Below, piece by piece: positions 3,225 through 7,946 of a stretch of 12,991 nt of DNA. Both the position numbers and the translations under genes were made by a program. This stretch comes from a virus, in the UHGV virus genome UHGV-0043381; one strand, given 5' to 3'. How positions within the stretch are numbered: position 1 is the first letter of the stretch; each line of letters begins with the position of its first letter. Below the pieces are notes generated by a model. It worked only from the letters and a program-made list of their open reading frames with translations. It was not told the origin of the DNA and did not search any database.

Positions 3225-3458
3225 ATGTCAACGAAGAACAGAACCCGCAGAACAACAACCCGCAACATCCGCTTTCCTAACCAAATGATTGAACAAATTA
3301 ACATCGCTCTTGATCAAAAAGGGTCCGGGAATTTCTCAGCCTGGGTCATTGAAGCCTGCCGCCGGAGACTGTGCTCAGAAAAAAGAGTTTCTCCTGAAGC
3401 AAACAAAGAAAAGAGTGACATTACTGAATTGCTCAGAAAACAGATCAGACCAGATTGA
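3225..3458 (+). CDS. Small basic hypothetical protein, 77 aa, possibly DNA-binding (ribbon-helix-helix-like N-terminus); cos-proximal, AT-rich
   Basis: ATG at 3225, uninterrupted to 3458. Arg/Thr-rich N-terminus MSTKNRTRRTTTRNIRFPNQMIEQINIALDQKG... resembles RHH/Arc-type regulators, judged by eye only. Weak SD. A similar small ORF sits near cos in DLP12-type prophages, from memory. Confidence 0.5.
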   Translation: MSTKNRTRRTTTRNIRFPNQMIEQINIALDQKGSGNFSAWVIEACRRRLCSEKRVSPEANKEKSDITELLRKQIRPD

Positions 3459-3517
3459 AGCAATTTAGATAATCGTGCAGACTACGCCTCCCCTCATATC
3501 ACATGGAAGGTTTATCT

Positions 3518-3928
3518 ATGGATCAGGTAGTCATTTTTAAACAAATATTTGATAAAGTTCGAAACGATTTAAACTATCAATGGTTTTATTCTGAGCTAAA
3601 ACGTCACAATGTCTCACATTACATTTACTATTTAGCCACAGAGAATGTTCATATTGTATTAAAAAATGATAATACAGTGTTATTAAAGGGCCTAAAAAAC
3701 ATTGTGTCTGTCAAATTTTCAAAGGATAGGCATCTTATAGAAACGACCTCTAATAAGCTGAAATCCAGAGAGATCACATTTCAGGAATACAGAAGAAACC
3801 TTGCTAAAGCAGGAGTTTTTCGGTGGGTTACAAATATCCACGAACAAAAAAGATATTACTATACCTTTGATAATTCATTACTCTTTACTGAAAACATACA
3901 GAGCACATCACAAATGTTTCCACACTAA
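3518..3928 (+). CDS. ybcV: DUF1398-family protein (YbcV/YdfO-like), 136 aa from the SD-supported ATG
   Basis: Protein [58 protein letters not shown]... matches my recollection of the K-12 DLP12 YbcV family. SD ggaagg lies 7 nt before the ATG at 3518; the ORF track extends to an upstream ATG at 3503, which lacks an SD. Strongly AT-rich relative to flanking phage genes. Confidence 0.65.
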
Positions 3929-4033
3929 ACCATAACGTCCGGTTTCTTCTACCCCTGCACCGGACTGGCTGACATGAAGAGCAACCCCGCGTTCAGTTGA
4001 CGCGTTAATAACCCGGTGTGCATCGTTTTTGAT

Positions 4034-4098
4034 TATTCCCGCACACTCACGCAGAAGGAATTCCCCGTCAGGCTACGGTCATGGTTAATGCGGGAATA
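4034..4098. repeat. Perfect 10-bp inverted repeat pair (tattcccgca ... tgcgggaata) flanking a 45-bp spacer, in the convergent gap between ybcV and rha
   Basis: Read directly: 4034-4043 and 4089-4098 are exact reverse complements; the spacer contains gaattc. No adjoining T-run in terminator orientation on either strand. Confidence 0.4.
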
Positions 4099-4230
4099 CG
4101 GCGACGATACAGCGCATGATGTGTCAGGCTTGAATACCTTTATCCGTTAAAAGGGATATCAGTTAAGTTATCCCGTGCAGGGTATAAGCCATTATCAAGC
4201 CCCCCGTAGATAGGCTTTGTAATGACATCT

Positions 4231-4755
4231 TCAATTAATCAGCAGTTCAGGCTGTGTCACCTGCAAGATGTATTCATGCTCGACAGCCAGGACACGCTTC
4301 TCTTTCTTCCGTTCGTTCATTAACCGACTGCCGATCGTACCTTTCAGCTTTGAGCGTGTTTCTTTGATGGCGTAGCGGTGCTGCATTTCTTCGCCAATTG
4401 CCATGCGGCGGCTCAGTTGTTCTGCCATCCAGTTGAATGCTGCGATATAGCTCTCCTTGATTGCCGCAGCAGCTTTCCCGGTGAACCCCATCACAACCAT
4501 GATCCAGCCATCTTTCGTCAGGCTGTACATCGGGCGAACCTTGCCCTGCTCATCGATATAATCAGCCGACGCAAAATTGCGTTGGCTAAACTCACGCGAG
4601 CAATCAGCCTTAACCTGCTCGATTTTCCTGAGAACATCACCGTGTCGCTTGCCGAAGTACTTGGCAATTTTTCTGGATGTGGTAACGACCTCTCCGTTTT
4701 TGGCTTGCACCATTTCTCGGAAGTCGAAGGCTGGAATAACTGAATGATTATTCAT
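4231..4755 (-). CDS. Rha-family phage regulatory protein (Phage_pRha-like), 175 aa from the first plausible ATG
   Basis: Motif ...EVVTTSRKIAKYFGKRHGDVLRKIEQ... near the N-terminus is typical of the phage Rha family as I remember it. The ORF-track frame extends upstream to 4998 through a non-ATG start; I place the start at ATG 4755-4753, preceded by aaagg. Confidence 0.65.
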   Translation of the reverse strand: MNNHSVIPAFDFREMVQAKNGEVVTTSRKIAKYFGKRHGDVLRKIEQVKADCSREFSQRNFASADYIDEQGKVRPMYSLTKDGWIMVVMGFTGKAAAAIKESYIAAFNWMAEQLSRRMAIGEEMQHRYAIKETRSKLKGTIGSRLMNERKKEKRVLAVEHEYILQVTQPELLIN

Positions 4756-6274: not shown

Positions 6275-6699
6275 AACCCCACCTCGCAGACAAAGCGGGT
6301 GTAAATTGAGGGAATACAACGTATCGCAAAAAAGCAGAAACGTAACAGACTCGGAGTCAGTGAATAACTCAGGTATTGAGTTATCAGCTAATATCGAGAC
6401 TCAAAAAATGGAAAAACCAGCTCGACGGCGGGTTTAAGCTGTGTGACGAAGTAACCACTCTTAACAGCATAACCAATTTTTTACGTACGTAAACCACTGA
6501 ATGATATTTATGAGAATGCTACCGAGTGTTCAAAACTCCACCACAAATACATAAGAAAACCTTAACAAATAACCAATAAATAATTTCCAGCGTTATTTTT
6601 AGCCAATTTAAATTGAACCTTCAAATTATAGAGCACTTATAAATAACAGCCATTAATATAAATTGGCTAATAGATTTATTTTTATTCAGCCAAGAGCCA

Positions 6700-6863: not shown

Positions 6864-7946
6864 ATGAAAAAATTAACAGTGGCAATTTCTGCTGTAGCTG
6901 CATCAGTACTGATGGCGATGTCTGCTCAGGCAGCTGAAATTTATAATAAAGACAGTAACAAGCTGGATCTGTACGGGAAAGTTAATGCTAAGCACTACTT
7001 CTCCTCTAATGATGCAGATGATGGTGATACTACTTATGCCCGTCTTGGCTTCAAAGGTGAAACCCAAATCAACGATCAACTGACTGGTTTCGGTCAGTGG
7101 GAATATGAATTCAAAGGCAACCGCGCTGAATCTCAAGGTTCCTCCAAAGACAAAACCCGTCTTGCATTTGCAGGCCTGAAATTCGGTGACTACGGCTCAA
7201 TCGATTACGGCCGTAACTACGGTGTAGCATACGACATCGGTGCGTGGACTGACGTTCTGCCAGAATTCGGTGGCGATACCTGGACCCAAACAGATGTATT
7301 CATGACTGGTCGCACCACAGGTGTTGCAACTTATCGTAACAACGACTTCTTTGGTCTGGTTGATGGCCTGAACTTTGCAGCTCAGTATCAGGGCAAAAAT
7401 GACCGAAATGAAGTAACTGAAGCTAATGGCGATGGTTTCGGTTTCTCAACTACTTATGAGTATGAAGGATTCGGCGTGGGTGCAACCTATGCTAAATCTG
7501 ATCGCACTAATAATCAGGTTATCTACGGTAACAACGGTCTGAATGCTTCTGGTCAAAATGCTGAAGTATGGGCAGCTGGTCTGAAATATGATGCGAACAA
7601 CATCTATCTGGCCACCACCTATTCTGAAACCCAGAACATGACTGTTTTTGGTAATAACCATATTGCCAACAAAGCACAAAACTTCGAAGCTGTTGCACAA
7701 TATCAGTTCGACTTCGGCCTGCGTCCATCCGTTGCTTACCTGCATTCTAAAGGAAAAGACTTGGGTGTTTGGGGTGATCAGGACCTGGTTGAATATGTTG
7801 ATGTAGGTGCAACCTATTACTTCAACAAAAATATGTCCACTTTTGTTGACTACAAAATCAACCTGATTGATAAGAGCGATTTCACGAAAGCATCTGGCGT
7901 TGCTACCGATGATATCGTTGCTGTAGGTATGGTTTACCAGTTCTAA
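6864..7946 (+). CDS. nmpC: Outer-membrane general porin of the OmpC/OmpF family (NmpC/OmpD-type), intact, 360 aa
   Basis: Signal peptide [23 protein letters not shown] followed by [24 protein letters not shown]... and C-terminal ...VGMVYQF (terminal Phe typical of OM beta-barrels); matches my recollection of the DLP12 NmpC family. Not IS-interrupted, unlike the K-12 copy. Confidence 0.92.

Follow-up and report, generated by a model that had tools for sequence, protein, structure and literature searches.

Locus and inverted repeat

The whole 12,991-nt sequence of the virus genome UHGV-0043381, referred to here as the window, was analyzed around a perfect inverted repeat that lies between two convergent genes. 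A DLP12-like prophage of E. coli HS30-1 matches the window with 100% identity, and the gene annotation was taken from the HS30-1 record. The repeat is located in a 302-bp gap between ybcV, read on the plus strand with its stop at 3928, and a gene of the Rha family, read on the minus strand with its end at 4231. The left arm, TATTCCCGCA (4034-4043), is the exact reverse complement of the right arm, TGCGGGAATA (4089-4098), and the 45-nt spacer contains a GAATTC palindrome at 4058-4063. The repeat, its spacer and the palindrome had been described in an earlier note made from the sequence alone, and their positions were confirmed exactly. Comparison with other phages and prophages indicates that the repeat is the central helix (P2) of a conserved block of ~181 nt, at 3937-4117 of the window. 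The repeat is thus one helix of a larger unit, and the strand of importance is the minus strand; neither point was contained in the earlier note.

Taken alone, the repeat is only mildly improbable. When the 302-bp gap was shuffled 2000 times with its dinucleotides preserved, 1.7% of the shuffles contained a perfect inverted repeat of at least 10 bp with a spacer of 3-100 nt, and three such loci are found in the whole window against 1.4 expected. The earlier statement that a pair of this kind is unlikely by chance holds only in this weakened form. Its observation that the repeat lacks the T-run of a standard terminator was borne out on both strands, since the repeat is followed by CGGCGAC on the plus strand and by ATCAAAAAC on the minus strand, with no U-run. 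The GAATTC palindrome appears to be incidental and is not conserved, because the relatives read GAGTTC, GAGTCT or GAAGTT at this position.

The window also carries a perfect 12-bp inverted repeat (6599-6610 / 6659-6670, spacer of 48 nt) located ~200 nt upstream of an ompC/nmpC-like porin gene (6864-7946), and another 10-bp inverted repeat at 325-334 / 387-396.

Architecture of the element

On the minus strand, the element is composed, from 5' to 3', of the P1/P2 domain, a linker, hairpin B, a second linker and hairpin A (Table 1). Pairing in P1 and P2 was scored on 65 distinct core sequences (1170 cells), and pairing in the five-helix structure on 76 distinct sequences including that of phage ES18. 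On this strand, the 10-bp repeat is extended by one further U.G pair (4088/4044), which brings P2 to 11 bp. In its 11 pairs 98.7% of the cells are paired, and the pair types found at single positions include CG/UG/GC/UA and UA/UG/CG. P1 consists of seven pairs (98.0% paired) with CG/UG and UG/UA alternations. The two helices are separated by a 5x7-nt internal loop, formed by 4099-4103 (CGCCG) and 4027-4033 (AUCAAAA), whose A-rich 3' side is nearly invariant.

The apical domain closed by P2 contains a small CCY/GGG hairpin at 4063-4072. Pairing in its CCC/GGG stem is complete (100%), the loop differs between copies in both sequence and length, and 10 nt are missing here from two variants; no consistent fold was found in the apical domain beyond this hairpin. 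In hairpin B, 92.7% of the cells are paired and three of the four inner pairs show changes on both sides. Hairpin A starts 9 nt past the stop codon of ybcV, on the opposite strand, and changes on both sides were observed in five of its seven pairs (CCGG/CCGG, CCUG/CAGG and, in ES18, CUCGAU/AUCGAG). Its tail is modestly U-rich (0.40 against a background of 0.28), and the first 8-9 nt of the tail vary between copies. Strong conservation was also observed in the loop sequences CAUUAAC, UCUGCGNGAGUGU, AAUCAAAAA and GGAAGAAA.

Two further contacts were considered and discarded. The lambda-type and Sakai-type variants supported neither an alternative helix, GUGUGC/GCACAC, nor a loop-loop interaction of hairpin A with the apical domain.

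Table 1. Coordinates of the element, its parts and the flanking genes in the window.
Feature	Positions	Strand	Remarks
Whole conserved element, ~181 nt	3937..4117	-	Sharp conservation edges; flanks unrelated between loci
P1 5' arm, GUAUCGU	4104..4110	-	Predicted to pair with 4020-4026
P2 5' arm, UAUUCCCGCAU	4088..4098	-	Includes the right arm of the repeat (4089-4098)
Apical domain closed by P2, 43 nt	4045..4087	-	Sequence highly conserved (CAUUAAC, AGCC, UCUGCGNGAGUGU)
P2 3' arm, GUGCGGGAAUA	4034..4044	-	Includes the left arm of the repeat (4034-4043)
P1 3' arm, ACGAUGC	4020..4026	-	Predicted to pair with 4104-4110
Hairpin B	3988..4004	-	Sequence variable, pairing kept
Hairpin A, GUCCGGU...GAAGAA...ACCGGAC	3937..3965	-	Purine-rich loop conserved
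ybcV (DUF1398) gene	3503..3928	+	Antisense to late transcription; context only
Rha family regulator gene	4231..4755	-	RefSeq coding sequence in the identical HS30-1 record; context only

Distribution and genomic neighbourhood

The block was found to be widespread. A 361-nt query matched 3907 of 5426 complete E. coli genomes, at a median of one and at up to seven places per genome. The 121-nt core matched 432 phage records, and in 431 the match covered at least 80% of the core length. The carriers include lambda (46868-47070, between bor and lambdap78), HK630, 933W, phage 21, Shiga toxin (Stx) phages, the DLP12 prophage of K-12 (NC_000913.3 579009-579212) and the Salmonella phages ES18 and S107. 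A search for the same repeat in other prophages had been proposed as a check in the earlier note, and the repeat is present and conserved in lambda and in most E. coli lambdoid prophages. In the alignments, the edges of conservation are sharp at ~3937 and ~4117, and the sequence beyond them is unrelated. The mean column identity of the copies is 73-80%, and conservation is higher in the block than in the coding genes that flank it.

The neighbours of the block were compared in 154 copies, which showed 39 different combinations. Upstream on the late strand, Rz was the nearest gene in 63 copies, antisense bor/iss in 45, Rha in 16, an HK620p39-like gene in 11 and a DUF6979 gene in 3. Downstream, ybcV/p78, a TonB-like gene, ylcI, an ECs1967-like gene, the small terminase gene and others were found. 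The element was always located between the lysis cassette and the packaging genes in a fixed orientation, with Rz and the terminase genes always on its own strand, and in 29 copies it begins 4-13 nt past the stop codon of Rz. Because of these many neighbour combinations, the constant strand relative to Rz and terminase and the frequent position just after the Rz stop, the block is best regarded as a separate module whose place and polarity in the late operon are fixed. In the prophage of the window, the gene that immediately precedes the element on the late strand is Rha, and a 77-aa open reading frame (ORF) at 3225-3458 encodes a YlcI/YnfO-family protein according to the HS30-1 annotation.

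The 933W copy (1999-2115 of the compared stretch) is a recombinant, with a lambda-type 5' arm and apical domain and a Sakai-type 3' arm, which leaves one G.G mismatch in P2. Conservation with Stx2 phage 1717 and PhiR70_1 is also seen in the stretch that separates the element from the Rha stop (4118-4232), which has two more hairpins, GGGATA..TATCCC (4153-4174) and AAGCC..GGCTT (4197-4222), the latter possibly the terminator of rha. This stretch seems to travel with the Rha and HK620p39-like genes.

Strand-specific conservation of pairing

The pairing of P1 and P2 was strongly conserved on the minus strand, where 98.5% of the cells hold standard pairs, against 84.0% on the plus strand. The minus-strand value was matched by none of 500 column shuffles, and controls in which the arms were slid gave 27-65%. 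On the minus strand, single changes in P1 and P2 produced G.U in 171 cells, spread over 10 positions, and A.C in 2; in the count that covers P1 and P2 alongside hairpins A and B, the figures for P1 and P2 are 187 G.U and 4 A.C. Simple mutation bias cannot account for this asymmetry, because C-to-U and A-to-G changes both occur and are confined to sites where the partner base permits them. Double changes that preserve pairing were also observed, namely C-G to G-C (in the lambda type), U-A to C-G and C-G to U-A, and ES18 adds U-A to C-G and C-G to A-U.

The same result was obtained when the whole structure was considered. In the five helices (P1, P2, CCC/GGG and hairpins B and A), 96.2% of the cells are paired and 12 pairs have changed on both sides. 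This level was reached in 0 of 500 shuffles, and slid controls gave 32-57%. Hairpin A is wholly rewritten in ES18, with CUCGAU/AUCGAG in place of UCCGGU/ACCGGA. Consensus folding with RNAalifold of 65 minus-strand sequences recovered the P2 and P1 helices with a consensus energy of -20.9 kcal/mol. With 78 distinct sequences, the energy was -18.0 kcal/mol on the minus strand against -5.7 kcal/mol on the plus strand, and the plus-strand consensus fold was without the stem altogether. The stem of a structured RNA was one of the possibilities raised in the earlier note, and it is this one that gains support from hundreds of conserved orthologous loci and from the pair-keeping changes on both arms.

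A covariance model of the P1/P2 domain (R1) detected one copy in the window, at 4008-4124 on the minus strand, with 133.9 bits, and scored the ES18 copy at 104.7 bits. In ~0.7 Mb of sequence, mostly unrelated contigs, nothing else scored better than E = 0.4. The unrelated contigs that served as negative controls came from a scan of 596 Gb with the short pattern CCCGNACACTCNCGCAGA, which gave 120 hits, mostly by chance.

Identical lambda-type copies (111.7 bits) were also detected in assemblies of unrelated taxa, among them Arcanobacterium, Brevibacillus, Cohnella, Pseudomonas and Verrucomicrobium. Several of them lie on contigs of ~3.5 kb, one of which is labelled as a plasmid. These copies look like lambda right-end control DNA contaminating public assemblies, presumably the 3.6-kb nanopore control strand.

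Coding potential, signals and known RNA families

The element is not protein-coding. The only ORF that runs across it (44 aa, 4016-4150, annotated in phage PhiR70_1) is broken by a 1-nt deletion in lambda and accumulates non-synonymous changes. The indels of the element are not multiples of three, and no codon periodicity was detected in the column entropy. This ORF was considered as a small protein and rejected, as it is not conserved.

No promoter-like site was reported by the promoter scan on either strand of 3400-4700, and no canonical sigma-70-type promoter for the element was detected on either strand. Sequence conservation ends a few bases 5' of P1, and the sequence upstream is unrelated between contexts. 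Neither was the repeat reported by the terminator scan.

Comparison with Rfam 15 gave no match at gathering thresholds, and the region 3850-4300 produced three chance-level eukaryotic hits with E of 5-10. The families AgvB (RF02702), AsxR (RF02703), STnc100 (RF02076), IS009 (RF02111) and C4 (RF01695) occur in lambdoid late regions and, like the element, are borne by enterobacterial prophages; none of them matches 3850-4300 up to an E of 10. AgvB and STnc100 were recovered by the same search at their own positions in Sakai. In the records, the region is annotated as a promoter or a hypothetical protein or is left blank, and literature searches by sequence string and keyword found no account of the element. 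The element is apparently undescribed, a statement that stands on these Rfam, annotation and literature negatives and is not proof of absence. Cis-acting structured RNAs of phage operons are a known kind of element; what appears to be new is this member, together with its role.

Elsewhere in the window, the IS009 family matched at 93-291 on the minus strand with 225 bits, against a gathering score of 117, in a region of head-tail joining and portal genes (located by offset from the HS30-1 annotation). PasB was rejected, as its published probe sequence is absent from the window.

Transcription across the element and the neighbouring HnrS

Published transcript ends of K-12 were compared with the DLP12 copy. 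A bicyclomycin-sensitive, that is Rho-dependent, 3' end in the late sense has been mapped to 579345 (+), ~130 nt past this copy (PMC7815308 supplement). Since this end lies downstream, late-sense transcription crosses the element and is not stopped at hairpin A. The end at 579345 (+) is antisense to ybcV, just past the element. Another Term-seq 3' end, at 578444 (-), is antisense to rzpD and is probably that of the borD transcript. Hairpin A was also considered as a terminator and rejected, given its weakly U-rich tail, the lack of a K-12 end in the ranges searched and the Rho-dependent end downstream.

The Hfq-CRAC peaks EcOnc10, EcOnc11 and EcOnc12 (PMC4104026, Table S2) correspond to HnrS, a 66-nt Hfq-dependent small RNA (sRNA) that represses hha (PMC13502914). 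HnrS shares the niche of the element, between the lysis cassette and the terminase genes. It differs from it in lying on the opposite strand, antisense to the late genes, in its unrelated sequence and in ending with an intrinsic terminator of its own, which has a U7 run; it is also largely limited to enterohaemorrhagic and enteropathogenic E. coli. In Sakai Sp10, where HnrS occupies ~6447-6512 (-) of the compared stretch, its terminator ends ~15 nt from hairpin A. HnrS contains CTACCCAATCAGTAC, with the seeds complementary to mazF and hha, followed by the terminator. This sequence is absent from the window with up to three mismatches allowed, and ybcV occupies the place of HnrS.

An apparent EcOnc11 peak inside the element proved to be an artefact of the Sakai coordinate versions, HnrS adjoining the element and lying outside it. 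Judged by the Rfam position of AgvB, Table S2 of Tree et al. (2014) gives coordinates that fall 128-137 nt below those of NC_002695.2, and this shift can mislead mapping. After correction, no Hfq-CRAC/EcOnc peak of Table S2 fell on the estimated positions of the Sp9, Sp10 and Sp12 copies; the Sp5 copy was not located.

Evaluation of alternative explanations

The explanation favoured here is that of a cis-acting structured RNA in the Q-dependent late transcript, serving as a processing or stability module, and it is held with about even confidence. Its structural part is supported by comparison, and its functional part is proposed from the position and form of the element. Several observations weigh against it. 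The minimum free energy of the full 181 nt is ordinary (z = -0.34 on the minus strand and -0.28 on the plus strand); only that of the 65-nt repeat unit, whose folding had been suggested as a check in the earlier note along with covariation analysis, stands out, with -2.74 and -1.70, respectively. P2 of ES18 has two C.A mismatches, which would be U.G pairs on the other strand, and a U.C mismatch occurs at one P2 pair in 10 of the 76 copies. Hairpins A and B discriminate weakly between the strands (29-30 G.U against 14-15 A.C cells). The copies are closely related and recombining, so the shuffle statistics overstate their independence. The very high conservation of the loop sequences points to a further constraint besides pairing, which might come from a protein partner, a tertiary fold or a role at the DNA level. 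Moreover, the K-12 Term-seq tables hold no 3' end in the ranges 579000-579029, 579100-579129 and 579170-579229, and no published RNA end, cleavage site or phenotype was found for the element.

The main rival on the minus strand is a stand-alone sRNA gene with its own promoter, acting in trans like HnrS, AgvB and PasA-D, or else an sRNA cut from the 3' untranslated region (UTR) of the late or lysis transcript. The structural evidence fits an sRNA equally well, and so would the discrete edges, the three stem-loops and the somewhat U-rich tail of the last hairpin; prophage late regions are also rich in sRNAs (PMC4104026, PMC13502914). An invariant AATAAT/GATAAT motif at the P2 3' arm resembles a -10 element, but it has neither a -35 partner nor a TG extension, no promoter-like site was reported there and the upstream sequence differs from one context to the next. 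With no canonical terminator, no Term-seq end at hairpin A in the ranges searched, transcription that reaches the Rho-dependent end and no Hfq-CRAC peak at the three Sakai copies whose positions were estimated, an sRNA is considered unlikely. A function on the plus strand is a little less probable still. In that case, bor/iss would have its promoter, operator or 5' leader in the block, or the block would supply the 3' UTR of ybcV, ylcI or HnrS, and the repeat would act as a regulatory palindrome. The block does lie 115-180 nt upstream of bor/iss in lambda, HK630, 21, 933W and DLP12, the annotated promoter of HK630 overlaps the right arm, and bor is expressed in lysogens (PMC7067206). However, bor/iss adjoins only 45 of the 154 copies, and the block is equally conserved beside Rz, Rha, HK620p39-like and DUF6979 genes. 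Read on the plus strand, 171 stem cells would become A.C mismatches, and the consensus fold misses the stem. The bor promoter of HK630 (JQ086376), TGGACA-N15-TACAAT, overlaps the right arm in lambda-type copies, and its hexamers are found in the lambda-type variant only; the window has CGGTCA and TACGGC there and no bor gene. In the lambda-type copies, the hexamers are made up of apical-domain and internal-loop nucleotides plus one base of the outer P2 pair, and the pairing is intact. The bor promoter may thus have been fitted into the element in the lambda lineage, where the sequence would serve two purposes. Conservation across the whole family cannot be explained by this promoter, whose hexamers are restricted to that variant. 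The HK630 promoter pair lies at 1266-1292 of the compared stretch, and in lambda the corresponding position is ~46,930-46,960.

The block could also have no function of its own and be a shared linker of recent ancestry, homogenised by homologous recombination at a mosaic boundary, with the repeat as a historical accident. Such an origin, judged just as improbable as a plus-strand function, would suit the similarity of the copies, chimeras such as 933W, the position exactly at a mosaic junction with so many neighbour combinations, the mild improbability of the repeat alone and the unremarkable thermodynamic z-scores. Neutral drift, by contrast, would not be expected to limit stem changes to compensatory and G.U changes on one strand, to change 12 pairs on both sides with a full rewriting of hairpin A in ES18, or to keep the block more conserved than its flanking genes with sharp edges in every context. 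The leading idea of the earlier note, an operator pair for the adjacent Rha or 77-aa YlcI-like protein or a recombinase site, now appears very improbable. The dyad is perfect and both candidate genes are near it in the window, but among the 154 copies Rha is the nearest recognised neighbour on one side in 16 and YlcI on the other side in 13, and conservation of the arms extends to every copy. A distance of 45 bp separates the two arms within a larger unit, and no promoter-like site accompanies them. Recognition of duplex DNA by a dimer is also disfavoured because the asymmetry of 171 G.U against 2 A.C cells would be unexpected. For a recombinase site, the position is syntenic, the orientation fixed and no recombinase associated. 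Least probable of all is an ordinary bidirectional intrinsic terminator, which the position between the convergent ybcV and rha might suggest. An intrinsic terminator has a G+C-rich stem, a loop of about 3-8 nt and a U-run directly 3' of it. The repeat has a 45-nt loop and is followed by no U-run in either direction, many copies have neighbours that are not convergent, and late-sense transcription in K-12 passes through to the Rho-dependent end. Neither absence of the repeat from orthologous loci nor a mundane bidirectional terminator, the two outcomes named in the earlier note as grounds for dropping its idea, was found.

Proposed role and comparison with known systems

For the favoured cis-acting RNA, the following sequence of events is proposed. 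Transcription of the minus strand from the late promoter would pass S, R, Rz and Rha in the direction of nohD and the terminase gene, and the element would be made within the Q-antiterminated late transcript or by read-through from upstream accessory genes. We infer that it is transcribed only within such longer RNAs, because it has no canonical promoter of its own, the upstream sequence is unrelated and it often follows directly on the Rz stop. In the transcript, P1 and P2 would form a long irregular hairpin whose 5x7 loop separates two helical segments and which closes the 43-nt domain, followed by hairpins B and A. The element may then act in cis at the boundary between lysis and packaging genes as an RNase III-type cleavage site, as a barrier to 3' exonucleases, or as both, and the effect would be protection or retro-regulation of the lysis-gene message. 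Its three stable helices could block 3' exonucleases that enter from Rho-terminated ends and possibly from run-off ends at cos.

In its broader form, the proposal is of a new RNA family, present in lambda and ~70% of E. coli genomes, whose three-domain ~180-nt cis element controls the processing, stability or retro-regulation of the late operon between lysis and packaging and, in view of its invariant apical domain, might bind a specific phage or host factor. This broader proposal is put forward tentatively, as somewhat less probable than the cis-acting module itself. The late operon of lambda is a textbook system, and the stretch from Rz to cos is usually treated as accessory DNA with bor and a few ORFs. 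If the proposal is true, an unstudied post-transcriptional step would exist in late gene expression, for example the separation or stabilisation of the lysis message or its retro-regulation after antitermination. For annotation, a defined feature would be gained in a region that now carries a promoter label, small hypothetical proteins or no label. In prophage mosaics, the element may also serve as a compact marker of where the lysis module ends, close to the virulence-linked bor/iss and to HnrS.

The nearest known counterparts of the proposed module are lambda sib/tI and the T7 R1.1-type sites, which are RNase III processing and retroregulation hairpins of phage polycistronic transcripts. RNase III sites span about two helical turns, often interrupted by an internal loop. 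P1 (7 bp) and P2 (11 bp) across the 5x7 loop have roughly this shape, which alone is not diagnostic. The element differs from sib/tI and R1.1 in showing no sequence similarity to them, in having a conserved 43-nt apical domain and not a simple loop, and in its two extra hairpins. By analogy with these well-established sites, it would share with them a long irregular hairpin of two helical segments and an internal loop, without a U-tail, placed in an untranslated stretch of an antiterminated transcript just downstream of the genes that it may affect.

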